Below are positions 1 through 23,005 of a stretch of DNA of 26,106 nt, one piece after another. The translations under genes were made by a program, and so were the position numbers. The DNA lies in the NCBI GenBank assembly GCA_964494215.1, contig CAZBQU010000002.1, positions 1 to 26,106 of the forward strand, given 5' to 3'. The DNA is from an uncultured Candidatus Saccharibacteria bacterium. GTDB lineage: Bacteria > Patescibacteriota > Minisyncoccia > Phycocordibacterales > Zambryskibacteraceae. The notes below the pieces were generated by a model. It ran no database searches. It saw only the letters and a program-made list of their open reading frames with translations, and had not been told where the DNA came from. How positions within the stretch are numbered: position 1 is the first letter of the stretch; the number at the start of each line of letters is the position of its first letter.

Positions 1-3000
1 TGGCACGGATACCTCCATTCACATCGAGTTTATTTGCAGGATTGGTCGTACCGATACCAACATTGCCAGAAGAAATGACGTTGAATGCGTTGCCACCAAT
101 CGAAGCGAGTGAGGAGAAGAGATTAGTGGAGGAAGCGGTGGTTGAGAACATGGCTGTCGTCGTCGCATTGGTGGTTGTGGAATTACCGCTTACCGTCAGG
201 TTCCCTGTTATGGATGTGTTCTTATTGAGCTGAACGCCGGTCGTATTGGTACCACCAATTTCTACAACATCGCTCGCATTTCCTTTAATGAGGCCGAGGG
301 TGTTGTTACCTGCGGCATTGAGAGCGGCATAGTATTTGTTATTTGATAAACCAATTTCTCCAGAGTTAAAGGCCGTGTATGAGCCGTTACCGATAGTGAA
401 GATACCCGTAGACGAAGTAATACCTACTCGAGCGCTGGCGGCATTAAATATTGTGGTTGTAGGCTCAATGATAAGTTGATCCGATGAGTTGAAATTGAAA
501 AGAGCCTGATCCGCACCGTTAGCTGCGTTCCTGGCATACACTGACTGGTTATTCGGCAGGCGCAAGACGCCAGTGGATGCAGGATTGGTACCGAGAGAAA
601 GCGATGTGCCAACATAGACCGAGCGAGGTCGCGTAGCGCTCGAAGCACCGATGTCTTGAGTATTGTCGGTAGCGAAGGTTAAGTTCCCGGTATTCGAAAT
701 ATCAATAAGAGCGGTGGAGTTGTCGGCACTTCTGAAGTGCAAGCCGCTTGTGCCACCGTAGAGGTATGTGTTTGTTGCATCACCCTGTACGAAATTGTGG
801 CTACTAATCTGATGAATTGTCCCACCCACAAATGAGACTTGGCCGTTTACATTAAACAGAGTTTGATTTACTCCGAGGGTAGTTGCGGCGGAAGTGATTG
901 TGGCCCCACTAAGCAGTGACCAGTTACCAGTATCACTGATCGTCATCAATGCAGAGGCATTGTCTGATTTCCTGAATTGAATTCCGCTCGTACCGCCGTA
1001 GAGGTAAGTTGTAGCAGCATCTCCTTGGACGAAATTGTGTCCTGAAAGTTGATGGATTTGGTTAGTGCCAGAAAGATTTAATACTCCTGAAATTGTTGCC
1101 GCTGGGGTTACTACGCTTGTGCCGAAGTACCCAGTGCGTGGTCGAGTGGCACCGGAGGCGCCGATGTCGTAGGCGTTGTCGGTGCCGGCGATGATATTGC
1201 CGCGGAAGGTCGTGACGCCAGCAACATCAAGCAGAGTGGCGGGGTTGTTGGTACCAATACCGACATTGCCGCCATTTTTAATTATCATTTTGACTCCCGT
1301 ACTATCCCATCCAGAAACAGTAGTTCCCGCCGGACCGCTCAATCCGGTGTGGAAGACAACGTCGCCAGAATATATTCTCATCGCTGCCGCCTCTGATGAC
1401 GTGATGTATTTCCAGCTCCCATCGTAGTGGACGTTGTTACCGTAGAGTGCCTGGGTGCCTACTACGTTTTGCATCGCGACAGTATTGCCGATCTGAAGAG
1501 TCTTCGAGGAACCATCGGCCGCAGCGGGGTTGGTGGTCCCAATGCCAACATTGCCAGTGGTGGCCGCAAGGATCGTCTGTCCGCCCGCATACAAACTTGT
1601 GGTTGTCGCATTTGTAGACGTGCTATTGGTAGAAACAATATTCGTGAGTGTCAGACGGGAAAGAGTGTTATCCCAAAGGAGTGAAGCTGAGTCAGCCAAG
1701 AGACCGCCGGTTGAGACGAATGGCAAGCGTCCGTTTGTAAGCGAGGAGATGGTGGCAGAGCCGAGAGCGGCATTAGTGGAGAAGAGGTTCGTCGAGGAGG
1801 CCGTTGTTGAGAAGAAGCTTGTGGTAGTCGCGGAGGTGCCGGTAGCGCGAGTGAAGAGAAGATCAGTGAGCGTTTGTGATGCGCTCGTGAGGTTAGTGAA
1901 ATTGCCGTTCGTAGAAAAGAAGTTCGTTGTCGTCGCATTGGTCGTCGTCGAGTTACCGAAGATGGCCGAGCCCAAGTTGGCATTCGTGGAGAAGAGGTTC
2001 GTTGAAGAGGCCGTGGTTGAGAAGAGAGAGGTGGTGGTGGCGTTGGTACCAGTCGCGTTCACGAAGGTGAAGTTCTGGAGTGTTGAGGAGCCGGTCACCA
2101 GAAGGTTACCGAGCGAGCCTGTGCCGGTCGAGGTGATGTTCCCTGAACCGGTGTTAATCGTATTGTTGTTTGTAAGAATACCGTTCGTCCACGTGCCCGC
2201 GATCTCGAAGCCCGTCGTTCCGGTGCCTGTGTTGTTGAGATAAATACCACGCTCAGTACTGCCTGTGCCCGTATTTGTAAGCAAGAGAAGGTTCTGGGTA
2301 CCAGAGGTCGTGTTGTTGGTAAGCGCTCCTGAGTAGAGATTCACATTCACGCCGATCGAAGCATCATCAACCGTGTATGTTGAGTTGAACGGATAGTTCA
2401 CCGAGAGATAGCGTGCATCACCCGCTCCCGCATTCCACTGGAAGAGGGCGTTACCGGAACCAGAGTTTCTCTGGAAGACGAGCGCCTTGTACGCATCACT
2501 CGCCTCTGTCGAGCCGACTGTCCAGGTGTTGTTGGACGTAGCACCACTCACAACCGTACCGGAAAGGTTGTTGGCCGTGAGAGTGTCAACGTAGGCATTC
2601 TTCCAGTAATAGCTTGGAGAACCAAGTGAGTTGGCATTCGAAGCAGCTGAGGTGGTAGGACGGAAGGCACCTGTAGAGTCAAAGACAACGGTGTTGTTGC
2701 CTCCCGGGTTAAGCGAGAGAAGTGTTTTCGACCCCGAACCGATACCCGCGCCCGTGACGTTAATCTCAAGAGCGCTATAACCACCACCCGCCGTCGTTGC
2801 ATCGACAAGATCGATTGCTTGCCCCTTCGAAACCTGACCGTTCCCCGCGTTCGCCGTGAGAGACTGGTGGATAAGCGTGCCGTTTCCTATCGCGCTGTCA
2901 TACACCGAGAAGACGTCCCCCGTCGTCACGCTCGAAAGGATGTTGAACGTACCGTCATTCTGCTGGTAATCGTTGACGTAGAGCTCATCGAAGGTGCCTT

Positions 3001-4357
3001 TCGTTGAGAAGAAGTTTGTTGTCGTGGCAGCCGTGCCCGTAGCCTGAGCGAAGGTGAAATTTTGCAACACTGCTGCGCCGTTCAAGAGAAGGTCCGCAAA
3101 GGTGGCCGAGCTGGCCGAGAGCGCGCCGAAGGTGGCGTTGGTTGAGAAGAGGTTTGTACTCGAAGCCGTTGTCGCAAAGGAGTTGGTACTCGTCGCATTG
3201 GTACCAGTGGCATTCGTAAAGAGGAGGTTTGAGAGATCGACGCTTCCACCCGTAAGTGAACCGAAGGTGGCGTTGGTTGAGAAGAAGTTTGTTGTCGTCG
3301 CATTCGTACCCGTTGCCGAACCGAACCCTAGACTTTCGAATCCACCGACGGGACCAATGACCGTGGCGTTGGTCATGAGTGAGTTGCGGAAAATGCCTTT
3401 TTCGGTCAACGCATAAATTGCCTGACCCAGGTTATCTGCATCGGAATCCGACTGGCGAGTCACTGTAGGGCGCGTGTCGGACGTAAGGATCTCATTGCGC
3501 AAAACCGAATTGTTGAAGGTGTTGTAAACCACTCTTGGCTCAGCAATCGCCGAAATCTGCGTGCGGACATACGCCTCAAGCTCAGCCTGCAACTGGCTCT
3601 TGCTCTCGGTAACCGGAGCCTCCGTTCTTGCGACCGTAACCGCCTGAGTGACGCCTACGCTCTTTGGCTCCGCAGGAGCGGTGACAAAGGCAACGCGATT
3701 ACTTGATGTTGTAACTATTTCCTCTGGCGCATCAGTACCGAAGGCAATATTGCGCAAGCTCTTGAATCCATCAACAAAGAATTCTACCGAGCCAGCGAGC
3801 GCATCAAAGAACGACGCCGCGGCCACTTGTGCGCCTGATGCATTTCCTAAGAGCTCAGTGCCAAAAGAAGAAACGAGTCCGATCTTCTCTTCTACATTTT
3901 TTGCGAGCGAGGGCGCTACTTTGTCTACCGTGAGAAAGGATGATCCCACCGCCACGATAAGGGCAAGCGTACCAACAACGGCTCTCAAGACCGTGCGCTC
4001 TGCAAAGCGAGACGCTGGCAAAGCAATCGGCTTCACAAGTTCAGGGATGCGAGGTGCATAATCCGCCTCATAGGCCACGGCCAGATTCTGGAATGTTTTA
4101 ACCGGGGCAGCTTCTCGCGCCTTCGTTGCGACAGGAGCCTCAGGACGAGGCAAAGATTTAACTTTTGCTAGTTCCTGATTTTTCTTGTGTTCGAGGAGCG
4201 AAGCATAGTCCACGTACCAGGTTCGACCAACGAGTTTCCCTGAGATCTTATTTGCGCGACAAAGTTGTCCGAGATAGTCCGAGGTATAGCCAATTTTCTT
4301 GGCAGCTCGGCTAGCCGAGATGTACTCCCTTCCTTCAGAAAATAAGTCAAAATCCAT
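1..4357 (-). CDS. Giant membrane-anchored surface/fibre-like protein with N-terminal HTH (partial, C-terminus runs off the left edge; at least 1452 aa)
   Basis: Hand translation from ATG at 4357 (alternative in-frame ATG at 4363) gives MDFDLFSEGREYISASRAAKKIGYTSDYLGQLCRANKISGKLVGRTWYVDYASLLEH (HTH_17/excisionase-like). A hydrophobic segment VLRAVVGTLALIVAVGSSFLTV follows (3926-3991), then Asn/Thr/Ser/Gly-rich repeats (NATTTNFFST, GNVGIGTTNP). The frame stayed open and consistent at every checkpoint to position 2. It is absent from the ORF track, presumably because no stop lies inside the window. Confidence 0.9.
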   Translation of the reverse strand, partial: MDFDLFSEGREYISASRAAKKIGYTSDYLGQLCRANKISGKLVGRTWYVDYASLLEHKKNQELAKVKSLPRPEAPVATKAREAAPVKTFQNLAVAYEADYAPRIPELVKPIALPASRFAERTVLRAVVGTLALIVAVGSSFLTVDKVAPSLAKNVEEKIGLVSSFGTELLGNASGAQVAAASFFDALAGSVEFFVDGFKSLRNIAFGTDAPEEIVTTSSNRVAFVTAPAEPKSVGVTQAVTVARTEAPVTESKSQLQAELEAYVRTQISAIAEPRVVYNTFNNSVLRNEILTSDTRPTVTRQSDSDADNLGQAIYALTEKGIFRNSLMTNATVIGPVGGFESLGFGSATGTNATTTNFFSTNATFGSLTGGSVDLSNLLFTNATGTNATSTNSFATTASSTNLFSTNATFGALSASSATFADLLLNGAAVLQNFTFAQATGTAATTTNFFSTKGTFDELYVNDYQQNDGTFNILSSVTTGDVFSVYDSAIGNGTLIHQSLTANAGNGQVSKGQAIDLVDATTAGGGYSALEINVTGAGIGSGSKTLLSLNPGGNNTVVFDSTGAFRPTTSAASNANSLGSPSYYWKNAYVDTLTANNLSGTVVSGATSNNTWTVGSTEASDAYKALVFQRNSGSGNALFQWNAGAGDARYLSVNYPFNSTYTVDDASIGVNVNLYSGALTNNTTSGTQNLLLLTNTGTGSTERGIYLNNTGTGTTGFEIAGTWTNGILTNNNTINTGSGNITSTGTGSLGNLLVTGSSTLQNFTFVNATGTNATTTSLFSTTASSTNLFSTNANLGSAIFGNSTTTNATTTNFFSTNGNFTNLTSASQTLTDLLFTRATGTSATTTSFFSTTASSTNLFSTNAALGSATISSLTNGRLPFVSTGGLLADSASLLWDNTLSRLTLTNIVSTNSTSTNATTTSLYAGGQTILAATTGNVGIGTTNPAAADGSSKTLQIGNTVAMQNVVGTQALYGNNVHYDGSWKYITSSEAAAMRIYSGDVVFHTGLSGPAGTTVSGWDSTGVKMIIKNGGNVGIGTNNPATLLDVAGVTTFRGNIIAGTDNAYDIGASGATRPRTGYFGTSVVTPAATISGVLNLSGTNQIHQLSGHNFVQGDAATTYLYGGTSGIQFRKSDNASALMTISDTGNWSLLSGATITSAATTLGVNQTLFNVNGQVSFVGGTIHQISSHNFVQGDATNTYLYGGTSGLHFRSADNSTALIDISNTGNLTFATDNTQDIGASSATRPRSVYVGTSLSLGTNPASTGVLRLPNNQSVYARNAANGADQALFNFNSSDQLIIEPTTTIFNAASARVGITSSTGIFTIGNGSYTAFNSGEIGLSNNKYYAALNAAGNNTLGLIKGNASDVVEIGGTNTTGVQLNKNTSITGNLTVSGNSTTTNATTTAMFSTTASSTNLFSSLASIGGNAFNVISSGNVGIGTTNPANKLDVNGGIRA
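602..1183 (-). repeat. Duplicated 23-aa module TDNxxDIGASxATRPRxxYxGTS (1115-1183 and 602-670)
   Basis: Read directly from the translation. Confidence 0.85.
683..1057 (-). repeat. Duplicated 45-aa module IHQxSxHNFVQGDAxxTYLYGGTSGxxFRxxDNxxALxxISxTGN (923-1057 and 683-817)
   Basis: Two 135-nt copies offset by 240 nt, with many synonymous differences. Confidence 0.9.
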
Positions 4358-4366
4358 GTACATAAA

Positions 4367-4372
4367 ATTATA
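4367..4372 (-). promoter_or_regulatory. -10 box TATAAT, 9 nt upstream of the giant gene ATG
   Basis: The minus strand reads TATAAT-tttatgtac-ATG; no SD motif. Confidence 0.55.
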
Positions 4373-4546
4373 ATTCTCAGCAAGTGAATAACATACGCAA
4401 AAAGGCCTATTTTCTGGGGACAATAAAATTTCATTTTAAGCTTCTGTAGCCTTATAAATTCACGTTTTAAATCCCCTTCATCCCTCTTTTGGGCTGTATG
4501 TTATTTTCCGAAATTATTTCCCTCTCAAAACTATCCCCACTAAACC

Positions 4547-4575
4547 TTGATAGATAATATAAATACTTATAAACT
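4547..4575 (+). promoter_or_regulatory. Candidate sigma70 promoter for the small HTH gene (TTGATA-17 nt-TAAACT)
   Basis: Consensus-like hexamers with 17-nt spacing in AT-rich intergenic DNA. Confidence 0.4.
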
Positions 4576-4627
4576 GTTCTATATAGGATTATTAATGTTT
4601 ATATAAGTTGATACACGTAATAGAGCC

Positions 4628-4873
4628 ATGAAAGAGTTATATTTTTCCATCAAAGAAGCGGCAGAAATTCTCGGTGTTTCGACTCTTACTCTGCGAAATT
4701 GGGACAAATCCGGCAAGTTTCCGGCACAGCGTCATCCCATGAATAATTACCGTGTCTATAGGCTCTCCTCTCTTGAGAAGATCGTTGAGGATATCGAAGG
4801 TGGTACCAACAAATCAAATGCGGAGAAACGCATGAAGAAACTCATCGTTCGACATGAAGAAGATGAGGGCTAG
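4628..4873 (+). CDS. Small MerR/excisionase-like HTH DNA-binding protein (81 aa)
   Basis: YFSIKEAAEILGVSTLTLRNWDKSGK...NNYRVY is a classic MerR/HTH_17 signature; there is no effector domain. Confidence 0.9.
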   Translation: MKELYFSIKEAAEILGVSTLTLRNWDKSGKFPAQRHPMNNYRVYRLSSLEKIVEDIEGGTNKSNAEKRMKKLIVRHEEDEG

Positions 4874-6222
4874 GCGAGCGCCTCTTTCATAAGCTCCTGA
4901 AGGAGAATCGGGTTGGCTCTGCCGCCCGATTTTTTCATCACCTGACCAACAAGGAACTGCACTGGAGAATCTTTTTTCTCTTCACTTAAAACGGCGGCAA
5001 TGAATCCGCGCAACACGTCCCTATCGCTTATCTGCATCAAATTATTTTTCTCTACAATCTCGTGCACATCTCCGCCTTCAGTCTGGAGTATCTTCAAAAT
5101 TTCTTTTGCACCGCGAGAAGAAATTTCTCCGCGAGCAATCATGCGAATCATTTCCACAAAAGCAGCGGGGGCGACAAGCGTCTGGATATCAGAAGCAATA
5201 TAGTTTGATGCAAGCTTCACGAGCGCAGGCTCCCCCAAGGCCCCTGCGACCTCTTCAAAGAAAGCCCCCCAGCTCGGCCGAGTGACATAGATCTCGACGT
5301 GCTCCGGAGTAATCCCGAAGGTCCCCAGACGCTCCCTCTTCTGCCATGGCAGCTCAGGAAGAGAGGCGACGAGCGCCTCGCGAGAGAACTCGGGGACTTC
5401 GGACACGAAGATCTTTGGAAGGTCCGGATCTGGGAAGTAACGATAATCATGGGAATCCTCTTTCGCGCGTTGCGAGAAGGTCTCTCCCCTCTCATCACTC
5501 CAGCCGCGCGTTTCCTGCGCGATCGTTTCTCCCTTTTCGAGAAGCGAGATGTGACGATTCATTTCGAAAGCAATTGCCTTCTCAACGGCCTTAAATGAGT
5601 TGAGGTTCTTCACTTCAACCTTGGTGCCCAAGGTCTCATTCTTCGAGACGGAGATGTTCGCTTCGACACGCATCTCCCCTTTCTCCATGTTGGCTTCGGC
5701 AATCCCAAGCGTTGTGAGGAGAAGCTGAAGCTCCTTGGCGAAGCGTGCTGCATCGGCAGCAGAATGGATGACAGGTTCAGTGACGAGCTCCATGAGTGGG
5801 ACGCCGGCACGGTTAAAATCGAGCAAACTCTCTTCGCCCTTGTCGTGGAGTGAGCGTGCAGTATCTTCTTCAAGATGAACGCGCGTGAGCTTCACTCCTG
5901 CCAATTCTCCACCGGTTACGAGCGGATATTTATACTGGGAAAGCTGGTAACTTTTCGGAATATCAGGATAAAAATAGTTCTTGCGGTCGAACTCAGTGTA
6001 GTCGGCCAAGACACCGCCAACCGCCGCACCGAAGCGCAGCACTCCCTTAACAGCTTCTTTGTTAATTACTGGGAGAGTGCCTGGGTGGCCCATACACACG
6101 GGACAAATGTTTACGTTAGGACGAGTTTCGTCGGGGTCGTTCAAAGAGGCGCAGAACATCTTCGTGCGCGTATTAAGCTCTGCATGCACCTCCAAGCCGA
6201 CCGTCAGCCTATACTCGCTCAT
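4870..6222 (-). CDS. gatB: Asp-tRNA(Asn)/Glu-tRNA(Gln) amidotransferase subunit B
   Basis: Motifs VGLEVHAEL, FDRKNYFYPD, HLEEDT, DFNRAGVPLMELVTEP, DYRYFPDPDL. Start moved to ATG 6222 (MSEYRL), downstream of TGCTATAAT. Confidence 0.97.
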   Translation of the reverse strand: MSEYRLTVGLEVHAELNTRTKMFCASLNDPDETRPNVNICPVCMGHPGTLPVINKEAVKGVLRFGAAVGGVLADYTEFDRKNYFYPDIPKSYQLSQYKYPLVTGGELAGVKLTRVHLEEDTARSLHDKGEESLLDFNRAGVPLMELVTEPVIHSAADAARFAKELQLLLTTLGIAEANMEKGEMRVEANISVSKNETLGTKVEVKNLNSFKAVEKAIAFEMNRHISLLEKGETIAQETRGWSDERGETFSQRAKEDSHDYRYFPDPDLPKIFVSEVPEFSREALVASLPELPWQKRERLGTFGITPEHVEIYVTRPSWGAFFEEVAGALGEPALVKLASNYIASDIQTLVAPAAFVEMIRMIARGEISSRGAKEILKILQTEGGDVHEIVEKNNLMQISDRDVLRGFIAAVLSEEKKDSPVQFLVGQVMKKSGGRANPILLQELMKEALA

Positions 6223-7262: not shown

Positions 7263-8135
7263 TTACGAATTCAGCGCGAGTTCCGCGAGTTTAACGGCAC
7301 CTTCCTTGCTCTCTGCGACGCATAGGAAGCGGCCACGATGGCAGAACACCGCATCTTCCACACCAGTCACCTCTTTCAACGAATTCCCGTCCAAAGCAGA
7401 CCAGGATTCGGGGAAAAGCTTTTTACGCTCGAAGCCTTTGATAGTCTGAGGTACGCCCTTGGCTCCCCAATTCCCTTCTCGTCTTTTATACACTACATAG
7501 ATCGGTTCCGGCTTCCCCACCAGCACAGGCTCCCAAGGCAAACTATCCTCAAGGACGATGATCTGTTTATTCGGCGCAGATTCAAAAATAACCTCGACTT
7601 TCTTCATACCCTCTACTCGTTCTCGCACCTTGCCTATTTCTCGAATGAGAAGTTCCCGAGCGATATTTACCAAGTTCATGAAAATCTTATATAACTCCTC
7701 ATCATCGTGAGTTTCGTTTTTCAAATAAGAATACAGGAAGTCGCTTATCGTATACGGACGAACATTTTCAAAGACCTGCTCGTAAACGGAAATTCCGTTA
7801 TCCGGCGCATCGATCGACATGACCAATTTTTCATCGAGAAGATCCGCTGCTTCTTTATTGCCAGCCAACTCTACCCCGTACTCTTTCCACACGAGGCCAA
7901 ACGAGGCATACGGAATACCGTTAGGTCTCGTGCCTGCCCCTCCTGCCTGGTGATGATCAAACTGTTTACGATCTGGGTCATGCACGAGGCCAACATCAAC
8001 TACGATATCCGCGCCTGCAATCAGGTTCTTATCTCGACTCCGAATCACCTCCGCCTCAGGATATTTAAGAAGAAGCGTTGCTACGGCAAAGATATCATCG
8101 GTATGGAAACTGCCGCTATGCGTGACGATGTTCAT
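7263..8135 (-). CDS. MYG1 family (UPF0160) DHH-type hydrolase/exonuclease
   Basis: IVTHSGSFHTDD, DVG, FDHHQ, YASFGLVWK, AVFCHRGRF. Start moved to ATG 8135. Confidence 0.9.
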   Translation of the reverse strand: MNIVTHSGSFHTDDIFAVATLLLKYPEAEVIRSRDKNLIAGADIVVDVGLVHDPDRKQFDHHQAGGAGTRPNGIPYASFGLVWKEYGVELAGNKEAADLLDEKLVMSIDAPDNGISVYEQVFENVRPYTISDFLYSYLKNETHDDEELYKIFMNLVNIARELLIREIGKVRERVEGMKKVEVIFESAPNKQIIVLEDSLPWEPVLVGKPEPIYVVYKRREGNWGAKGVPQTIKGFERKKLFPESWSALDGNSLKEVTGVEDAVFCHRGRFLCVAESKEGAVKLAELALNS

Positions 8136-8646
8136 AGACCTTGTTCGCCCAGTAGAGAAGGAGGATCGCCGCAATGATGGTTAAGGACATTGTAGGGATG
8201 GTGACGTAGCCATACGCATATACATACAACTTAGCGCAGGAAGCCGTGGCCTCACACGGGATAAGCGGATTGCCACCCCACTGAATGTAGGCGTGGTACA
8301 GGGAGAGGACAAGTCCCATGAGTGAAAGCGGAAGAACGTAGCTGAAGGCTCCTCGATCCTTCTTCACATATCCAACAAAGAAGAGCGCGAGCATAGGATA
8401 GATGGCAACACGCTGCCACCAGCACAAGTAGCAAGGCTCAAAGCCAACACCGTTTGAATAGAAGAGGCTGCCCGCAATAGCGATGAAGGCGACGAAGATA
8501 CCAAGAAGAAGAGCGTGCTTCCCCATGAAGCGAGCAAGATTTCTCCCAAACGTATGTCGGAACACAAGCGCGAGGAATGCAACGACAAGGACAATATCGA
8601 ACGCGACGACAAGAGCTGGCAAGACTGATTGGATGGTAGCGATCAT
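8116..8646 (-). CDS. dsbB: Disulfide bond formation protein B (DsbB/BdbC family)
   Basis: Multiple TM segments, FEPCYLCWWQR, a second Cys pair PCEATASC, and VTIPTMSL. Start moved to ATG 8646. Confidence 0.88.
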   Translation of the reverse strand: MIATIQSVLPALVVAFDIVLVVAFLALVFRHTFGRNLARFMGKHALLLGIFVAFIAIAGSLFYSNGVGFEPCYLCWWQRVAIYPMLALFFVGYVKKDRGAFSYVLPLSLMGLVLSLYHAYIQWGGNPLIPCEATASCAKLYVYAYGYVTIPTMSLTIIAAILLLYWANKVYEHRHA

Positions 8647-8647
8647 A

Positions 8648-9016
8648 TTATTGCGGTAATGAGCAACGAGAAGCAGCTGCGAGATCAGCAAGTGGCACCT
8701 CCCCCGTCTTCACTGTGCCGTCGGGGAACTTCCACGTAGGATATCCAGTAATACCAGCGGCTTCGCAAACAGGCAACTGATTGTTCCCATCGGGAGTGGA
8801 GCACTCGATGTAAGGCAAGAGCTTTGCAGACGCGCCGAACATGGCCTTTTGATTCTGGCAATGTGGGCACCAGAAGGTACCGTAGAAAAGAGTGCCACTC
8901 TCCTTCAAACATGTGGCGAAGGCATCAAGCTTCCCTGGTCGACCAGGCGTACGCACAAGCCAGAAGACAAAAGCCACGAAGAGGATGAGCACGACGACCC
9001 AGGTATATTTTTTCAT
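8648..9016 (-). CDS. Membrane-anchored thioredoxin/glutaredoxin-like oxidoreductase (similar to the VKOR-associated Trx domain)
   Basis: N-terminal hydrophobic anchor, YGTFWCPHC, YIECS...C...GYPTW; six Cys in total. Confidence 0.85.
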   Translation of the reverse strand: MKKYTWVVVLILFVAFVFWLVRTPGRPGKLDAFATCLKESGTLFYGTFWCPHCQNQKAMFGASAKLLPYIECSTPDGNNQLPVCEAAGITGYPTWKFPDGTVKTGEVPLADLAAASRCSLPQ

Positions 9017-12452: not shown

Positions 12453-14492
12453 TTACAGCTGCTTCAAAAGTTCGTCGTACGTCGCAGCGTTTGCAGGATC
12501 AAGTTTTTTTCTCGCCTCGAGAATCGCGCGCACGCGATCCATACGTCCGTTGCCGTAGTACGCAGAAACAATGCGCGAATCCATCGTCACACGATCCAAC
12601 GGAATCAAAGCAAGCATCTCTGCTTCCGCGCGAGTGTTTCTTGCATAAATTGCACCGATGAGATAAATAATCCGAGCTTCTTCGTATTGCGGCGCGAGCT
12701 CATACGCTTCCTTGAACACGGCGAGAGCATTGTCGAACTGCTTCGCACTGATATACGCGGATCCAAGCTCAAAGTAGACCTGTTGCTTTTCTGGCATGAG
12801 CGTGCGAGCGCGAGTGAGATGTGTCATACCTTCGTCGAGGTTCCCCACCAAGGCAAGGAATTGCCCGGCCAAAAGTTCATGGCGTGCGTCAGAGGCATAT
12901 CTCGCATCTTGCGCCGCGATCGTTTCCTTGAGGAAATTGTAAAACTCATTTTTTTTCTCAAGTGCAATCTCACTCTGGAGAATCACGGAGACATTGTTGA
13001 CGGCCTGTTCCGTAGCTTCGATATGTCCAAGATTGCTTGCTTCAAGTGCCGAACGGAAGGAGTCTGTCGCCACGCCATAGTCTTTAACAGAAACAGCTTT
13101 GAGCGCATTCAAGAGAGAAAGATTCCCAGAAAGCGGCCGCCACTCAACGACATAGAGAGAACCAATGAGAAGGAGGGCTGCACCGAGCATCACTGCATTC
13201 CGACCGTTCTCACCCAACTCCTTATGCTTCCACACCGTCTCCCCCGCTGTGCGTCCGTGAATATAAGCCAGCAAGGTGAAGAAAAGTATGTAGCTCACCA
13301 AATGGTCGAAAACAAACATATTGTGGAAGAAGTACGCCGCCATAAGCGAGGTGAGCACCGCCCGTTCGAGGAACGAGAGCGTGGCTCGACGCCAGATAAG
13401 ATACAAGGCCGCTCCATATAAGGAGAGGTACGTAAGGAGCCCTAGGACACCGCCGGCGACAAGCCAGTCAAGAAAGATATTGTGCGCACGGTCAAACCAC
13501 GGTTCGAGAGCGTACATCTTGGCACTGTAATGCTCTTGGAAAACGTACGAGAAGTTCTCCTGACCCCAACCGAGAAGCGGCCGCTCGAGGAATCCTTTCC
13601 ATGCCATTGGCCACACGTAGTAGCGACCCTGCGTCTGCAATTCCGCAGGGCTCAACGTCGCGAAGCGCGAGAGCACTGGGCTCTGCGTCACAAATTCCGT
13701 ATTGCGCGCCAAGAAAAATCCTCCCACAAGCAGTACAACAGCAGCAATTCCCACGAGACTTGCCTTCCGTACGCCTCGGTCGACAGTATTCCAAATGTTT
13801 AAAATAGCGAACACAAGCACCCCACCGAGCAGGCCTAAAATCGCACCACGCGTAGCCGTGTAGTAGAGGATGAAAGTTTGGAAAATGATGAGCCCTCCAT
13901 AGAGCCAGCGCGATTTCTGAATATGTCGTTCGCGGATAAGAAATAGCGCCGCGATAAAGATGTTGAAGAGCATGTACACCGCAAGATACGTCGCGTTACC
14001 GAAGGTGCCGTCAACGCGCACACCGCTTTGTGCGAGACGCAACGTCCCGAGAAGCTGCAAGAGCGCGTGCCCTCCTACGAGGAGCGACGCGATAAGCTCC
14101 GTCTTCCACCACTTGTTCCACAACTCCTCCGTCATCACCGCGCCCGCCACAATGAAATATGCGCCCAAGTGCAGGAGCGAAACGAAGCCGTCCATGCGCT
14201 CGTAGTTCGACCAGAAACTTTTAAGCGGTGCCACACCGAGAAGATCCGCCACGCCGATCACTGCGAGGAAGGCGAGGGCGGCGTAGAGGAGCATGGTCTT
14301 CTTTGGCCTATACGCAGGCACCATCGCCGCGAGCACGAGCCACAACGCGAAGATGATCTCCACCACAAACCGCCACGCAAAAGCTTTCGTCGTTACGTAC
14401 GGAAAGAAAAAGGAGCTATAGGTCAGGAATGGGATAAACGGAACGAGAAAAAGACCCCCCACAACAATACTCTTGAGTGTTTGTCTATTCAT
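12453..14492 (-). CDS. O-antigen ligase family (Wzy_C/WaaL/O-OTase-like) membrane protein with C-terminal TPR region
   Basis: Many TM segments, GTFGNATYLA, TATRGAILG, RYYVW...PLLGWGQENF, AHNIFLDWLVAGGVLG and TPR-like helical repeats. Confidence 0.9.
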   Translation of the reverse strand: MNRQTLKSIVVGGLFLVPFIPFLTYSSFFFPYVTTKAFAWRFVVEIIFALWLVLAAMVPAYRPKKTMLLYAALAFLAVIGVADLLGVAPLKSFWSNYERMDGFVSLLHLGAYFIVAGAVMTEELWNKWWKTELIASLLVGGHALLQLLGTLRLAQSGVRVDGTFGNATYLAVYMLFNIFIAALFLIRERHIQKSRWLYGGLIIFQTFILYYTATRGAILGLLGGVLVFAILNIWNTVDRGVRKASLVGIAAVVLLVGGFFLARNTEFVTQSPVLSRFATLSPAELQTQGRYYVWPMAWKGFLERPLLGWGQENFSYVFQEHYSAKMYALEPWFDRAHNIFLDWLVAGGVLGLLTYLSLYGAALYLIWRRATLSFLERAVLTSLMAAYFFHNMFVFDHLVSYILFFTLLAYIHGRTAGETVWKHKELGENGRNAVMLGAALLLIGSLYVVEWRPLSGNLSLLNALKAVSVKDYGVATDSFRSALEASNLGHIEATEQAVNNVSVILQSEIALEKKNEFYNFLKETIAAQDARYASDARHELLAGQFLALVGNLDEGMTHLTRARTLMPEKQQVYFELGSAYISAKQFDNALAVFKEAYELAPQYEEARIIYLIGAIYARNTRAEAEMLALIPLDRVTMDSRIVSAYYGNGRMDRVRAILEARKKLDPANAATYDELLKQL

Positions 14493-14520
14493 GCCCCATA
14501 TCGTACCATGGTAGCCATAT
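14493..14520. promoter_or_regulatory. 28-bp divergent promoter with overlapping -10 boxes
   Basis: Minus strand: TGG-TACGAT-7 nt-ATG. Plus strand: TACCAT-11 nt-ATG. A 10-bp palindrome TACCATGGTA lies at 14504-14513. Confidence 0.55.
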
Positions 14521-15801
14521 ATGCAGCATCTCCGCTCTCAAGCACACTCCCTCCTCCGCAAAAGCGAGAGCATCTTCAAAACTGATATGGTCTACCTGGC
14601 CAAAGGTAGTTTTTGGTTCGCCTTTTCTCAAGCAATTGTTTCCCTGTCTTCCTTTGGCCTCGCTATTGCCTTTGCCCACTTCCTGACAAAAGAGGCTTAC
14701 GGTCAGTACAAATACATACTCTCGATTGCGGGCCTACTGGGCACAATCACTCTTACCGGGCTGCCCTCGGCGGTCATGAGAGCTATTTCGCAAGGCTACG
14801 ATGGAACGCTTTCATATGCATTTTGGAAAAACATTCGATGGAGTGCCATCTCTGCGTTAGCAGCAGCTCTCTTGGGAGGCTACTATTTCTACAAAGGCAA
14901 CAACTCTCTTGGTATCTCGATGCTCTTCGTAGGATCACTTTGGCCTTTTTTCCAAAGCAGCAACCTATACAACTCATACCTCGTAGCCAAAAAGGATTTC
15001 AAAAGAAACGCAATATATTTTGAAATTATCGGCAACATCTTCCCTATTCTTGCCTTGTTACTCACCATGACCCAAACGGGTAACCCAACCTGGCTCGTGG
15101 CTACGTACCTTGTTTCCAATACCTTCATTGGTCTTATATTGTATAGACGTGTTATCTCAATCTATGCACCACGCGGCCCGATAGATGAACATGCGTTAGG
15201 TTACAGCAAACACCTCAGCTTCATGGGGATCCTCTCCGGTATCGCCGCACATCTTGATCAAATCTTGGTCTTCCAATACATTGGTGCCGCCGAATTGGCA
15301 ATTTATAACTTTGCCACAGCCATCCCCAACCAAGCCAAAGGACCTTTGAAGGGGCTTTCAACATTAATGTTTCCTAAATTTGTTGAGCGAGATGAGAAAG
15401 AAATCCAATCAGGCATGAACCATAAATATCTTGTGATGTTTATGGCGGGCCTCGCCCTCACTATCGTCTATATATGTGCTGCCCCTTATATCTTCTATTA
15501 CTTGTTTCCTCAATACACAGATTCAATCATTTACTCTCAGATTTTTGCCCTGTCTTTTCTAAGTATCACCTTCAATCCAGCGGACGTGTACCTTTCGGCT
15601 AAAAAGAAAATCCATGAACAATATATCGGCACTCTCACCAACGCCGTCATCCAAATAATAATGACATTCGTTGCCATTATTAACTGGGGGTTACTCGGGC
15701 TCATTATTGCCCGCGTCGCTGTGCGCATGCTGGGTAATCTTACCAGCCTTGCCCTCTATCACTACTCAATTAAACGCGATTTGAAACTCCATGGAGAATA
15801 A
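14521..15801 (+). CDS. wzx: Wzx/RfbX-type oligosaccharide flippase
   Basis: About 12 TM segments, LTKEAYGQYKYILS, LDQILV...GAAELAIYNFA. Confidence 0.88.
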   Translation: MQHLRSQAHSLLRKSESIFKTDMVYLAKGSFWFAFSQAIVSLSSFGLAIAFAHFLTKEAYGQYKYILSIAGLLGTITLTGLPSAVMRAISQGYDGTLSYAFWKNIRWSAISALAAALLGGYYFYKGNNSLGISMLFVGSLWPFFQSSNLYNSYLVAKKDFKRNAIYFEIIGNIFPILALLLTMTQTGNPTWLVATYLVSNTFIGLILYRRVISIYAPRGPIDEHALGYSKHLSFMGILSGIAAHLDQILVFQYIGAAELAIYNFATAIPNQAKGPLKGLSTLMFPKFVERDEKEIQSGMNHKYLVMFMAGLALTIVYICAAPYIFYYLFPQYTDSIIYSQIFALSFLSITFNPADVYLSAKKKIHEQYIGTLTNAVIQIIMTFVAIINWGLLGLIIARVAVRMLGNLTSLALYHYSIKRDLKLHGE

Positions 15802-16597
15802 AACTCTTTATTGCATCGGAGACAGTCACGCGAGTTTCTTCTCAGGAACTAACTCAATCCAACCATCCTGGCCACTCCAGGCTCGCAATGTCATCCCTTC
15901 GTTCACGTCCTTTCGTCTTGGAGCGGTACTGGCATACAGCCTTCCCGATCTCGGCACAAAAACTCAAGGAAGAGAGAAGCTCTTTGAAGTTCTCTCCACT
16001 CTCCCCGAAAAGAGTTCTATTTTAATGTGTTTTGGCGAAATTGATTGCCGAGTACATTTAGTTAAACAGGCGGAGCAGCAACATCGCCCGCTCAAGAATG
16101 TAGTCGAGGAATGCGTTGAAAGATATGTGCACGTCTTACAAGAATTGCAACCTCATTTCCATGTTTCTGTTTGGGGTGTTGTACCCTCAACTCCTTCCGA
16201 AGAAATTATCGATGCTCGCTATCCTCACTACGGCACACACATCGAAAGGAACACTGCCACCAAAATCTTTAATGAACACCTCCGCGTTCTCTGCCAGCAA
16301 AAGAATATCCCTTTTATCTCGATCTTTAACGAACTTACTCACAACGATGCTTCCACTAATCCAAAATATTTTTCTGACAAAGTACACCTTTCTCAAAGAG
16401 CCATGCCTCTCGCGGTGCGGCAGATACACGCGGTACTCCCCAACATACCAATACGCCTATTCAACAACAACCTCGTACATCTGCCTTTAAGCTGGGCCCT
16501 TCCTCTCTTTACAATCCGCTGTGAAATTAACACGTTTTGCTATTACTACTACAAGTTCCTGAAACAGGTTGCCAAAAAGATTCTTCGCAGAGCCTAG
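15791..16597 (+). CDS. SGNH/GDSL-family hydrolase-like protein (candidate glycan O-acetyl modifier)
   Basis: IGDSHA, FGEIDCR, DKVHL motifs. Confidence 0.75.
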   Translation: MENKTLYCIGDSHASFFSGTNSIQPSWPLQARNVIPSFTSFRLGAVLAYSLPDLGTKTQGREKLFEVLSTLPEKSSILMCFGEIDCRVHLVKQAEQQHRPLKNVVEECVERYVHVLQELQPHFHVSVWGVVPSTPSEEIIDARYPHYGTHIERNTATKIFNEHLRVLCQQKNIPFISIFNELTHNDASTNPKYFSDKVHLSQRAMPLAVRQIHAVLPNIPIRLFNNNLVHLPLSWALPLFTIRCEINTFCYYYYKFLKQVAKKILRRA

Positions 16598-17223
16598 AGC
16601 TTCGTGACTTTCGCCAATTGAATGACCAAGCGTCCAAACGAAGTGTTGTCAAAAGAGTCAACTACAGGCATAATCTCGACCGAAAATTCATTCCGATCAA
16701 TCGCGTCTACTGTACGTTTAGCGCCAGCGTCGATTCGGTTTGTCCAATAATCATCGAAAATTAAAACGCTTCCCTTATGCATAAACGTCTTCGCATTCTG
16801 CCAATCGCTTTCTACGGTCTCGAGACTATGTCCTCCATCAATAAAGATAATGTCCATCGAAGGATGTTTCCCTTGCTCATTTCTTAAGGTCTGCGTCGTG
16901 TCACCCTTAATTAAGTTAATCGAGGCGCCCGTCTTCAAAAGCTTCGATTGAACAACTTCTTGGGGCGGAGGTTGTTTGGAAACTTCTTTTTGAAAAGTCT
17001 CGGAATCCATCCGCTCAAAGAAATCGAATCCGAAATAATTGATTGTAGTAGGCTTATTGTATCGAGATGCAATCTCGATCATTCTCCTTGCCCTTTCCCC
17101 ACTCCACACACCGATTTCCATAATATTTTTTGGTTTCAACCTTTTAATCTCGGTGAAAATCTGATCATACCTTCGAGGGATATCTTTGGAGCGGAGGATG
17201 TGTTTTTTTATGAAATAAAGCAT
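16594..17223 (-). CDS. Class I SAM-dependent methyltransferase (Methyltransf_24-like)
   Basis: IMEIGVWSG, IFIDGGH, LIFDDY. Confidence 0.88.
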   Translation of the reverse strand: MLYFIKKHILRSKDIPRRYDQIFTEIKRLKPKNIMEIGVWSGERARRMIEIASRYNKPTTINYFGFDFFERMDSETFQKEVSKQPPPQEVVQSKLLKTGASINLIKGDTTQTLRNEQGKHPSMDIIFIDGGHSLETVESDWQNAKTFMHKGSVLIFDDYWTNRIDAGAKRTVDAIDRNEFSVEIMPVVDSFDNTSFGRLVIQLAKVTKL

Positions 17224-17230
17224 ACGGTTA

Positions 17231-17236
17231 AGAATA
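17231..17236 (-). promoter_or_regulatory. -10 box TATTCT, 7 nt upstream of the methyltransferase ATG
   Basis: TATTCT-taaccgt-ATG. Confidence 0.45.
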
Positions 17237-17243
17237 GCGTAAT

Positions 17244-18338
17244 TTACCCTTTTTGGTACAAGCTGATATAACGCTCCGCGGTCTTACCCCAAGAAAATTC
17301 CTTTGCAAAATCACGGGCATTTTCACCAAAATCTTTTTTATGCTCGAGCGTTTTGAGTATCTTATCCGAGATATCTTTGGGATTTTTCTGCTCTGCCAAA
17401 CAGCCGGTCACCCCGTCTTCAATCGCATCCTCAATCCCACACCCCCTACTACCCACACCCGGGATTCCGAATTGGTATCCTTCGAGAAATACAAGACCAA
17501 ATCCTTCAAAGTGGTGGCGGTCGTTACGAGAATTAAGAAGCGCCACATCAGATTTCTGATAGAGATATGACAACGCCTTGTCGTCATGCGCATCGGAAAT
17601 AATCGAAAGATTCTCCCTAACCCCCGCCTGCTCAGCTCTGGTCTTAATCATCTCCACGTACGCCGTGTCTTCGTCAGAGCCCACCACAAGATATGTAAAA
17701 TTGGGATATACATCCTTCAAGAGAATGAGGGCATCGAGTGAATCTTTTTGACCTTTTCGACTTTTAATTGCCCCCACCGTGATAAAGACTGGACTACCGG
17801 CAACGGCAAATTTTGTTTTGAAAAAAGATTCTTCTGCGGCGGAGAGTGCTGGCAACAATGTAGTGCCCAGGTGAACAACTTCAGTTTTAAATCCAAAACC
17901 AAAAATCTCCTCGATACGTTCAGCGACATAGCGGCTAATCGCGAGTATGCGCTGCGCCCTTTTATAAGCCGCGGACATTAACCTCTTCTTCAACTTAGAG
18001 TGGCCAGGGAAGGAATATGTGCCCACCGCATTGATAAAAAGCTTCTTTCTCGTCCCCAATACTGCCCCATAGGCATACAGAGCATACGGCCACCCATCCA
18101 TAGCATGCACAACGTCACAGGACCTCGCATGTTTTCTGACAGTAAGAATATTTCTTAGAAAATTAATAGCTGAGAGGTCATGCAATACAGGAAACTGTTC
18201 AGGGCAGAGCTCCGTAGACCCTCGTGTGACGACACTGAAACACACGCCCCGCCTGCGATATTCTTCAACTACGTTCAATGAATATCTTCCCCAACCAGAA
18301 TGAGTATCAAGCCTGGGAGTAACAATGAGCACCTTCAT
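17244..18338 (-). CDS. Glycosyltransferase family 4
   Basis: ITVGAIKSRKGQ, EGFGLVFLEG, GCLAE, FSW. Confidence 0.92.
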   Translation of the reverse strand: MKVLIVTPRLDTHSGWGRYSLNVVEEYRRRGVCFSVVTRGSTELCPEQFPVLHDLSAINFLRNILTVRKHARSCDVVHAMDGWPYALYAYGAVLGTRKKLFINAVGTYSFPGHSKLKKRLMSAAYKRAQRILAISRYVAERIEEIFGFGFKTEVVHLGTTLLPALSAAEESFFKTKFAVAGSPVFITVGAIKSRKGQKDSLDALILLKDVYPNFTYLVVGSDEDTAYVEMIKTRAEQAGVRENLSIISDAHDDKALSYLYQKSDVALLNSRNDRHHFEGFGLVFLEGYQFGIPGVGSRGCGIEDAIEDGVTGCLAEQKNPKDISDKILKTLEHKKDFGENARDFAKEFSWGKTAERYISLYQKG

Positions 18339-18350
18339 TTCGTGATTTTT

Positions 18351-19451
18351 TTAATCATTTTCAATAAATGAGAGCACGCTCTGCGCACGCCTTTCCCACG
18401 TGTGCTCCTCGGCCTTACGTCGTGCAGCCAGAGAGATTGCCTTTGCCTTTTCAATATTTTCCAAAATATCTTTAATCGCCTTCGCCAAGCCATGAGGATT
18501 ATCGGCTTCAAAAAATACAGCCGTCGTCTCATCAAGAACATCTCTCAAGGAAGGCAGGTCAGCGGCCACGATGGGGCGCGCTGCCGAAAGATACTCGAAG
18601 AGCTTCATGGGAGACGTGTAGAGAAGAGAGTTGTCGTCTTTTGCAGTATTGGGGATCACGAGCACATCTGCTGCAGCCAACCAAAGCGGCTCTTCAGTCT
18701 GTGGCTTAAAGCCCTCAATGATAATATTGGTTTCGGCAGAACATCTTTCTCGCAGACGCTTTACGTCAGTATCTTTTGTTCCTCCCACCAGTACCACGAC
18801 ACAATCCTTAAGATCCGCTGCAGCATCGACGAGCACGTCCACACCCTTCCACTTCTTAAAGTTCCCCCAGTACAAAACAATTCTTTTGTCAGATGGGAGA
18901 TTCAACGCTCTTCTCGCCTCGTCCTTATTCCCCACCTGAAAAAGAGCGAGATTAACAGCATCTGGCGCCACGAGAACGCGACTGGCGGCCACGCCTATTT
19001 GCACAAGCACTTTTTTAATATGGCTCGTCAAGACGACAATTTTCTTCGGCTTATATCCCCATATGTTCACATGCTCGGGCATATGAATCTCAATAACATA
19101 ATTTTTAAAAAACATACCAAGTGCCGGATCACGAGTATACAGAACGTCAAATTTTTTATGTAACAAATACAACTTCACTGATACAAGAAAGGAGTACACG
19201 TTCAATATGTTACAAATTTTTTCTGGTACAAAGCCTCCGAAGAGATCGATTACAGGGAGAGTTTTGATCGTAAAATTGCGCGGCACATTGTAGAACGTAA
19301 ACGGGTCCTCGCTCAAAAGATTCTTGCGTTTCGGCACGACGAGTTCTGTTTCAACTCCTGCCGCAGCAAAGGCGGCGCACATATTCATAATCTGAAACCC
19401 ATGAGCATTCTTTGTCGGTATCCTGACGGGGGTGGCGTATATTAATTTCAT
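18351..19451 (-). CDS. Glycosyltransferase family 4
   Basis: YWGNFKKWKGVD, SPMKLFEYLSAARPIV. Start moved to ATG 19451. Confidence 0.92.
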   Translation of the reverse strand: MKLIYATPVRIPTKNAHGFQIMNMCAAFAAAGVETELVVPKRKNLLSEDPFTFYNVPRNFTIKTLPVIDLFGGFVPEKICNILNVYSFLVSVKLYLLHKKFDVLYTRDPALGMFFKNYVIEIHMPEHVNIWGYKPKKIVVLTSHIKKVLVQIGVAASRVLVAPDAVNLALFQVGNKDEARRALNLPSDKRIVLYWGNFKKWKGVDVLVDAAADLKDCVVVLVGGTKDTDVKRLRERCSAETNIIIEGFKPQTEEPLWLAAADVLVIPNTAKDDNSLLYTSPMKLFEYLSAARPIVAADLPSLRDVLDETTAVFFEADNPHGLAKAIKDILENIEKAKAISLAARRKAEEHTWERRAQSVLSFIEND

Positions 19452-19458
19452 ATAGCTG

Positions 19459-21480: not shown

Positions 21481-21501
21481 TTATCGACATCTTTTAATCC
21501 A

Positions 21502-22206
21502 TTAAACCGCTCTTTTAGTAGCAAAAAAACCATACCCGAGATTGTATTTCATAGAGGGCTTGAGATTACCAAATAACAATACAACCACCCTTTGAAGTAT
21601 TACCTGCATTTTCCAAAAAATACGAGTTGAATACCTTTTTTCCCCTCCTTCAAGCATGGCGAAGAAATGCGATGTCATTTGCGCCAATAAATCGTTCGGG
21701 GTACCGAGAGGCACGATTACTATGTCTACGTACCCAGCGTCAGAAAGCATTCTTCGCAGCGCATAATCTGTATAACGAAAATAATCATATGGCTCTTGAT
21801 GAACCATAAGCATAAATGGAGTGGAACCTACAATAAATCCTCCATTTTCTGTTACTCTAAAACATTCATTTATAAGCATTTGAGGTGCGTATATATGTTC
21901 AAAGGTATTGCTACTAGCCACGACGTGGTATTGGCCATCCTCAAAAGGTAGCCCGTCTTCAAGATTATGGATCACATCCGTTCCTTCATACGGAGCAAAA
22001 TCAATGGCTGTTTTGTTGAATGTCCTATACAAATCCTCAAAATGATGCGCCCCCGAGCCCACATCCAAGAGTTTCCCCGATAGCGATGTCTTACTTATAC
22101 AATCTTTAATAAAAACATACTGGGCCCTTCGAAGGGATGACCATTTTGATTTATCTTTATATCTATCTATTGGGAGTAAATTTTCCGTTTTTTTCATATG
22201 CAACAT
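21502..22206 (-). CDS. Class I SAM-dependent methyltransferase (Methyltransf_11-like)
   Basis: LLDVGSG, NTFEHI, EPYDYFRYT. Start is either at the TAATG overlap (22206) or at 22197. Confidence 0.85.
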   Translation of the reverse strand: MLHMKKTENLLPIDRYKDKSKWSSLRRAQYVFIKDCISKTSLSGKLLDVGSGAHHFEDLYRTFNKTAIDFAPYEGTDVIHNLEDGLPFEDGQYHVVASSNTFEHIYAPQMLINECFRVTENGGFIVGSTPFMLMVHQEPYDYFRYTDYALRRMLSDAGYVDIVIVPLGTPNDLLAQMTSHFFAMLEGGEKRYSTRIFWKMQVILQRVVVLLFGNLKPSMKYNLGYGFFATKRAV

Positions 22207-22979: not shown

Positions 22980-23005
22980 TGGATGACTCACAATATATCA
23001 CCTAG

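Follow-up and report, generated by a model that had tools for sequence, protein, structure and literature searches.

Bacteria of the Candidate Phyla Radiation (CPR, Patescibacteria) are believed to spend their lives fixed to host cells, and next to nothing is known of their attachment organelles or of the way they regulate genes. The locus described here raises the question why a giant protein that resembles a surface fibre outside the cell should carry a DNA-binding-type helix-turn-helix (HTH) domain inside it. The locus lies in a stretch of 26,106 nucleotides (the window) from an uncultured Candidatus Saccharibacteria bacterium, at positions 1 to 26,106 of contig CAZBQU010000002.1 (C2), which belongs to a genome (G000) of 513 kb, a size in keeping with CPR, in 58 contigs with 92.7% completeness. 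We found that the HTH and a single transmembrane (TM) helix form a conserved module which carries the fibre. We tentatively propose that clustered HTH heads fasten the base of a trimeric fibre to DNA and so act as a membrane-to-DNA anchor; with DNA binding putative, we regard this as a serious possibility, a little short of probable.

The minus-strand frame 2..4423 is open throughout its 1474 codons and runs past the start of the window and contig in the open reading frame (ORF) listing. The chance of an open run of this length is about 2e-31 under equal codon use. Because the window begins at base 1 of C2, the giant gene is truncated by the contig end and not by a stop. Two candidate starts are present, ATG 4363 and ATG 4357. 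The start at 4357 is conserved among homologues (alignment column M3 is invariant) and that at 4363 is not, the closest relative having Ile at the first position. Residues are numbered here from ATG 4363, which gives 1454 amino acids (aa) to the contig edge. The gene is covered by contigs of three wastewater DNA runs with few substitutions and zero insertions or deletions, and contigs of four public runs placed on window positions 1-4900 confirmed the sequence, none of them spanning the contig end. Pfam and NCBIfam gave zero matches with the whole 1454-aa protein as query. Its parts are as follows.

2..4357, minus strand: giant gene, N-terminal 1452 codons, from the conserved ATG 4357 in a frame open to the contig edge.
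4178..4342, minus strand: winged helix-turn-helix (wHTH) of excisionase/MerR (HTH_17) type, residues 8-62, predicted to be cytoplasmic (weak HTH_17 match, family profile, AlphaFold2, structural matches).
4079..4177, minus strand: Lys/Arg/Pro-rich variable linker, cytoplasmic, residues 63-95 (20% mean identity; predicted local distance difference test score, pLDDT, <50 in AlphaFold2).
4028..4078, minus strand: short cytoplasmic conserved motif (F/Y)xYExDxxPxLPxLxK, residues 96-112 (48% mean identity).
3926..3982, minus strand: single TM helix, residues 128-146, N-in/C-out (Kyte-Doolittle 2.17; positive-inside rule).
3374..3925, minus strand: extracytoplasmic juxtamembrane region and stalk, residues 147-330 (family alignment, identity profile).
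2..3373, minus strand: Thr/Ser/Asn/Gly-rich repeat fibre, residues 331-1454, with 45 NxS/T sequons (repeats, composition).

This anatomy agrees with a preliminary description of the stretch. The open minus-strand frame from 4357 with 1452 aa was confirmed, with its conserved start. The excisionase/MerR-like HTH, which had been placed at about residues 10-58, occupies residues 8-62 according to the AlphaFold2 fold, structural matches and HTH_17 matches of the family, and the single hydrophobic helix, placed before at about 123-144, is the sole segment of its kind at 128-146, the same in all 21 family proteins. The outer region had been called repeat-rich and fibre-like, and it shows NATTTNxFST and GNVGIGT repeats, richness in Thr, Ser, Asn and Gly and tail-fibre matches. 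The HTH is joined to the ectodomain as described, with no stop or frameshift between the parts in homologues or in the three DNA runs.

Conservation is distributed very unequally along the protein. In a survey of homologues for HTH conservation, the mean pairwise family identity was 72% in the HTH, 20% in the linker, 17% just before the TM helix, 31% in the TM helix, 24% after it and 58% in the stalk motif. Compared with the closest orthologue, identity was 95% in the HTH, 46% in the linker and 67-89% in the fibre. Judged by pairwise identity, the HTH is by far the most constrained part of the giant protein.

The window head alone matches HTH_17 (PF12728) weakly, with E 0.019-0.044 and 14.5-15.6 bits, which is below the cut-off of 27. 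HTH_17 is matched by 19 of the 22 aligned family members (best 1e-5), and relatives retrieved with the family profile reached 43.1 and 41.6 bits with HTH_17 and 33.3 bits with TIGR01764 ('excisionase family DNA-binding'), all above cut-off. AlphaFold2 modelled residues 10-60 as a beta-alpha-alpha-beta-beta-alpha winged helix with pLDDT of about 90. A structural search of 48,161 PDB chains, made independently of Foldseek, placed Pukovnik Xis, BldC, other excisionases and MerR-family regulators at the top (Z 5-6.1). The best Z, 6.1, was obtained with both Pukovnik Xis and BldC (root mean square deviation 2.0 A over 51 residues for BldC), and the matches span the whole head. Foldseek gave the Xis/BldC/excisionase/MerR set again, plus TraN and RacA. 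The best structural matches are thus small wHTH DNA binders of the Xis/BldC/TraN type, which are soluble, whereas the head here is membrane-tethered. TraN and BldC use this domain in tandem or in head-to-tail multimers, which parallels the members of the present family with two HTH copies.

No match to Trans_reg_C, the OmpR/PhoB-type winged helix, was found in the head with Pfam; the head is of MerR/excisionase type. The HTH profile gave only spurious barnase matches (E>1) against PDB sequences, and a feature search of the ESM Atlas with the N-terminal 330 aa gave no usable match. In 324 head copies from 172 diverse proteins there is almost no variation in the recognition helix, DYIGQLxR, or in the Gly and Trp of the wing, whose motif is GRxW in the window's family. 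Basic residues at positions typical for DNA contact are conserved (the GRxW wing, R19, R36 and K39), and the head is net positive. By sequence and model, the head fits among excisionase/MerR winged helices, with putative DNA binding.

The membrane part is simple. The hydrophobic 19-mer at 128-146 is the sole such segment in the window protein and in each of 20 database homologues, and AlphaFold2 models a helix at 119-149. The net charge on the N-side of the TM helix is +7 in the window protein and +3 to +18 across homologues. The predicted topology is type II, with the N-terminus inside, the C-terminus outside and a single pass. On the inner side, residues Y98, D101, L106, P107 and K111 of the short motif are invariant or nearly so in the family alignment, and the motif is found in distant members also. 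On the outer side, the juxtamembrane region and helical stalk contain a QLAAxS...GFxxLK helix and a SLRxDLKxELExYVRxQI segment that resembles a coiled coil, together with the best-conserved motif outside the membrane, LRxEILxADTRPTVTRQSxSDVD, at 3428-3511 (minus strand).

The module is not restricted to this protein. The N-terminal HTH-TM-stalk part is kept in at least 20 database homologues and in 24 of 36 same-genus genomes, many of them with long open frames. The database homologues are labelled Parcubacteria or Patescibacteria and named 'hypothetical protein' or 'tail fiber domain-containing protein'. With the head as profile, 6,695 cluster representatives were detected at E<=1e-3, and 4,057 of these reached E<=1e-10. 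Among the best-scoring 149 relatives, 142 have one TM-like segment, the median length is 323 aa with a median of 52 aa past the TM helix, and two tandem heads are typical, in a list that is biased to two-head proteins because each head adds to the score. ORFs that bear the head range from 182 to 6,630 aa in the order's other families. Over these surveys the giant fibre is one of several cargoes, and HTH-TM is an independent, widespread CPR module. Our literature search on this architecture in CPR found no description; the combination of HTH, TM helix and fibre appears to be new, in a family for which we found no earlier description.

Relatives of the window's genus often have a second giant of 1,849 to 3,688 aa directly downstream (for instance at L011:11848-17502 and L012:13796-19359), which carries two tandem heads of paralogue type (PYSAEYLSLLARK...) and, like the window protein, a single TM helix and this stalk motif. 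Neither a second giant nor a paralogue of the N-terminal module was found in the assembled contigs of the window's own genome, where a contig search gave a single HTH like this one and a single S74 domain. In the same-genus genomes G016, G019, G024 and G031 the module was not found; gatB likewise gave no match with this query at E<=1e-30, so no conclusion on dispensability can be drawn. Another genome, G010, was first scored as lacking the module and carries an HTH giant of the paralogue type.

The fibre is rich in T (16.7%), G (12.1%), S (11.7%) and N (11.0%), with eight NATTTNxFST-type units, three GNVGIGT units and two long repeats. Tandem Repeats Finder detected almost nothing in the DNA of the fibre region, which means that the protein repeats have diverged at the nucleotide level. 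Residues 900-1474 weakly match the phage tail-fibre family phrog_9942 (E 3.1e-5), and phrog_18345 and phrog_33119 were matched too. Residues 900-1454 have 111 homologues at E<=1e-10, many with PF13884 and some labelled 'tail fiber domain-containing protein'. The missing end of the gene probably lies on another contig of the same genome, C10.

L039:3-2255 on contig C10: 5'-open 750-aa ORF, probable C-terminal end of the giant (synteny with genome G029).

This ORF has GNVGIGTTNP repeats as in the window and matches phrog_9942 with E 1.2e-24. It contains Peptidase_S74 (PF13884; E 4.4e-10, 40.1 and 45.3 bits, cut-off 22), with the Ser/Lys motif S-D-x-R-x-K present as SDERLK at residue 479, and also a coiled coil, four Cys in two pairs (464/477 and 652/661 in the numbering of this ORF) and a Gly/Glu/Pro-rich tail. 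Genes for TPR, MurJ and LepA proteins follow. The same three genes (767 aa, TPR; 563 aa, MurJ; 592 aa, LepA) follow a single gene of about 2,200 codons in the close relative G029, whose product is 89% identical to window residues 861-1454, and colinearity with G029 in blastn puts the gap between C2 and C10 at about 100 nt. An apparent frame break in the G029 orthologue, which splits it into ORFs of 853 and 1,346 aa (L040:3611-3623), corresponds to a stretch of N in the record and not to a frameshift. Intact homologues of 1,430-2,452 aa join the N-terminal module with S74, and one of them adds a right-handed beta-helix. We conclude that the full protein would have about 2,240 aa, composed of HTH, TM helix, stalk, fibre and S74, and that the window holds its inner two thirds.

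By its matches the outer part of the protein is a member of the tail-fibre/S74 group, yet a chromosomal and cell-anchored one. Like phage tail fibres and endosialidase tailspikes, it is repeat-rich, ends in S74 with the S-D-x-R-x-K motif and matches PHROG tail-fibre families. Unlike them, it is encoded in the chromosome among housekeeping genes (gatB, obg, secA, dsbB, murJ, lepA), with synteny conserved across genomes, and not in a prophage; and its N-terminal TM helix anchors it in the cell's own membrane with a cytoplasmic HTH attached. Elsewhere in the window, a glycan gene cluster at 12453-25164 encodes a Wzy_C and TPR protein, a Polysacc_synt flippase, two GT4 glycosyltransferases, methyltransferases, a NeuB fused to a xylose-isomerase-like TIM barrel and a Glyphos_transf-like protein. 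With 45 NxS/T sequons and about 40% Ser/Thr/Asn, the fibre could be a glycosylation substrate.

How could a head inside and a fibre outside work together? Following the S74 family, phage fibres and MYRF, we suppose that S74 would drive trimerisation of the outer part and then cleave itself. The models for such trimerisation and self-removal are endosialidase, tail fibres and MYRF (PMC3742443, PMC8326128). The mature fibre would be a trimer held by three TM helices, and three HTH heads would thereby be gathered at the cytoplasmic face. The clustered heads could then bind DNA, or another ligand common to the family, with avidity. The fibre base would thus be fastened to the nucleoid, in the way that RocS, RacA and RicO link DNA to membrane. 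The recognition helix is near-invariant across different cargoes, and one common ligand fits this better than gene-specific operators. Such a ligand, for example DNA, would also explain the invariant helix, the tandem heads and the near-tailless members better than a sensor-regulator model does. The tandem 2xHTH arrangement of many members represents recurring multivalency.

In RocS, RacA and RicO, an N-terminal MerR-type wHTH, oligomerisation and a membrane anchor together make a DNA-to-membrane tether (PMC11500499; bioRxiv 10.64898/2026.03.06.710092). Like these proteins of Streptococcus, Bacillus and Staphylococcus, respectively, the giant links an N-terminal MerR-type wHTH of about 55 aa to a membrane anchor. 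Their function needs multivalency, and RacA is among the fold matches of the head. Unlike in these proteins, where the anchor is a C-terminal amphipathic helix or DivIVA binding, it is here an internal TM helix followed by a stalk and a fibre of about 2,000 aa. The RicO preprint, in citing earlier RocS work, states that the amphipathic helix of RocS is replaceable by unrelated TM domains (bioRxiv 10.64898/2026.03.06.710092). RocS and RacA have a central cytoplasmic coiled coil for oligomerisation, which is absent here, so oligomerisation would come from outside the cell. The likeness is one of design, with no detectable sequence homology established.

Several points weigh against the DNA anchor. 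A coiled coil such as RocS and RacA possess is missing from the cytoplasmic part, whose residues 63-127 are basic, variable and modelled as disordered by AlphaFold2. The window's own head scores below the Pfam cut-off, and its recognition helix begins with an invariant Asp. The near-invariance of this helix would equally fit a conserved protein partner. Trimerisation and self-cleavage are deduced from the S74 family, and the join of C2 and C10 rests on synteny, with no bridging read or contig. The own genome already encodes ParB, so the module would not simply be a ParB substitute. The module was present in just 19 of 301 evenly drawn phylum genomes (E<=1e-8), concentrated in few families, so it has no universal housekeeping function.

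The alternatives depend partly on the neighbouring genes. Four homologue loci were read, one of them distant and the others from the window's subfamily, and their gene order is VTT, two genes, MYG1, obg, gatB, a divergent small MerR gene and the HTH-TM gene. The two genes after VTT encode thioredoxin-like and DsbB proteins in the window's subfamily, and secA precedes the block in its three loci. In the window the dsbB and thioredoxin-like genes are at 8116-9016 (minus strand), as part of this conserved syntenic block beside the fibre gene. The HTH-TM gene was located after gatB in each CPR locus read. Distant CPR contigs have a two-head HTH-TM gene of about 320-400 aa directly behind gatB (L041:6001-10834; L043; L045), often followed by a one-head HTH-TM gene with a long ectodomain. 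In L041, separate signal-peptide genes lie downstream of the HTH-TM gene, and one of their products has FTNATGTNSTTTNAF-type repeats as in the fibre. This arrangement suggests fusion or fission, and a functional tie between anchor and fibre. Upstream of the giant gene the window contains the following.

4628..4873, plus strand: 81-aa MerR/excisionase-type HTH gene without effector or dimerisation domain (Pfam MerR, E 1.6e-11).
4364..4627, between the two genes: divergent promoter region, with blocks conserved over 10 loci (intergenic alignment).

The small MerR gene is divergent to the giant in each of the 14 loci read, and its mean identity is 87%. Across the genus, the set of genomes with this gene coincides with the set that has the HTH-TM gene, G010 included, and the divergent pair recurs, with cargoes of 182 to 2,603 aa, in a further five families of the order. 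Since related genomes are not independent, we take this pairing as strong synteny and not as statistics. In G010 (L050, G010:C10:13000-23700) a gene for a 143-aa signal peptidase I-like protein lies between the small MerR gene and a paralogue-headed giant of 1,522 aa. A complex prediction of residues 1-127 with the small MerR protein had a score of 0.00, which is no verdict and weighs neither way.

In the promoter region, conserved blocks are found near the MerR gene at 4587-4601, 4566-4575 and 4532-4549, and near the giant gene at 4414-4423 and 4365-4382. The last of these blocks includes, on the minus strand, a TATAAT at 4367-4372, which precedes the conserved ATG 4357 by 9 nt, and the distance is 7-11 nt (mostly 7-9) in relatives; this spacing suggests a leaderless transcript. 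A conserved TAGGTT-like block lies 17 nt upstream of TATAAT. The longer intergenic blocks occur only once in the own genome. An inverted TGGGGA(T/C)A pair was considered as operator and is not claimed, as it is not enriched genome-wide (21 observed, about 32 expected). Given these blocks, which are unique to the locus, the small MerR protein is a natural candidate for the local regulator of the divergent promoters, and in the mechanism proposed above it would be dedicated to this role.

The alternative which survives best is that the HTH fold binds protein and not DNA. The head would then serve in the cytoplasm for docking, assembly or export quality control and would act with the YExDxxPxLPxLxK motif to bring one common partner to the bases of surface proteins; this could be the small MerR protein, or could belong to the secretion or division machinery. 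This would account for helix 2 surface residues that are near-invariant across thousands of proteins, together with a conserved linear motif near the membrane, and also for the strict co-occurrence with a small MerR-type protein and for a place that is conserved within a block containing secA, dsbB and a thioredoxin-like gene. It accounts less well for the conserved basic residues of DNA-contact type (GRxW wing, R36, K39), the net positive head and basic linker, and the nearest structural neighbours, which are all DNA binders; and no partner was identified. We consider docking to a protein rather unlikely.

A membrane-tethered transcription factor was one of the interpretations offered in the preliminary description, which had pointed to the ToxR/CadC type of protein. 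Contact or load on the fibre would be relayed to the HTH, which would act either while tethered (ToxR/CadC-like) or after release by juxtamembrane or intramembrane cleavage (regulated intramembrane proteolysis or MYRF-like), and the gene's own divergent promoter could be among its targets. This agrees with the placement of an HTH from a DNA-binding family on the cytoplasmic side of a lone TM helix, with the strongly conserved, locus-unique blocks of the upstream region and with the genes for M50 site-2 proteases in the own genome. In addition, the same S74/ICA domain occurs in MYRF, combined there with a DNA-binding domain and a TM helix (PMC3742443, PMC3742440). But only about 52 aa lie outside the membrane in the best-scoring 149 relatives, leaving little space for a sensor, and the recognition helix stays the same from paralogue to paralogue and from cargo to cargo, unlike that of specific regulators, which diversify. 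Distant members sit directly behind gatB without a conserved intergenic region, and the co-occurring small MerR protein is a simpler candidate reader of the promoter blocks. Moreover, S74 is at the far extracellular end, so that a cut by S74 cannot free the HTH.

Like ToxR, CadC and TcpP, the giant has an N-terminal cytoplasmic HTH, one TM helix and a C-terminal outer domain. Unlike in ToxR and CadC, its HTH is of the MerR/excisionase class and not the OmpR/PhoB-type winged helix of ToxR, and the outer part is a fibre of >2,000 aa (or a tail of about 52 aa in the best-scoring 149 relatives) and not a compact sensor. So the anatomy of the preliminary description, an HTH, one TM helix and a huge fibre, was upheld, and its ToxR/CadC-style signal relay is not favoured, because of the wrong HTH class, the short outer parts of relatives and the invariant recognition helix. 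We judge a transcription factor of this kind unlikely; a DNA tether at the fibre base, which the preliminary description had named as another option, would fit best.

An artefact, be it a chimeric assembly, a pseudogene or the misreading of two genes (one for a small HTH-TM protein, one for a fibre) as a single one, can practically be dismissed: the assembly is fragmented with the gene cut by a contig end, a fibre-repeat protein is separate from the HTH-TM gene in one distant locus and the G029 orthologue seems broken, but the frame is open over 1474 codons, three independent DNA runs are without indels, the break in G029 is a run of N, and the HTH-TM-stalk part persists, in many cases within long open frames, in 24 of the 36 genomes of the genus and in at least 20 proteins of the databases.

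The comparison with MYRF (myelin regulatory factor), a eukaryotic membrane-bound transcription factor, leads to a bolder extension of the DNA anchor. In both cases a DNA-binding domain, a TM helix and a phage-derived S74/ICA domain are in one polypeptide. Unlike in MYRF, the order here is DNA-binding domain, TM helix, fibre and ICA, compared with DNA-binding domain, ICA and TM helix; the cut frees the DNA-binding domain in MYRF, and here it would shed only the chaperone outside. The DNA-binding domain is MerR/Xis-type here and Ndt80-type in MYRF. For MYRF, trimerisation is required for DNA binding (PMC3742443, PMC5436001). We speculate that CPR may wire trimeric phage-derived fibres through the membrane to DNA, with S74 trimerisation outside licensing DNA binding inside by three clustered MerR-type heads, so that nucleoid attachment, DNA handling or transcription would come under the control of fibre assembly or of contact with a host, the co-inherited small MerR protein also taking part. 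This is quite improbable in our estimation. If true, the MYRF principle would have its counterpart in bacteria, where S74 trimerisation would license DNA binding across the membrane that separates the two events.

As the most strongly conserved part of the protein, the head should have an important job. Thousands of sequence clusters place a domain of DNA-binding type under the membrane, and in the window's lineage it is placed under a giant phage-like fibre. For annotation, it means that CPR entries named 'hypothetical protein' or 'tail fiber domain-containing protein' become recognisable as surface fibres anchored by HTH-TM, and not as prophage remnants. If the head binds DNA, the nucleoid would be physically linked to the surface in cells a few hundred nm wide, and this would bear on chromosome organisation, DNA uptake and contact sensing in these bacteria.

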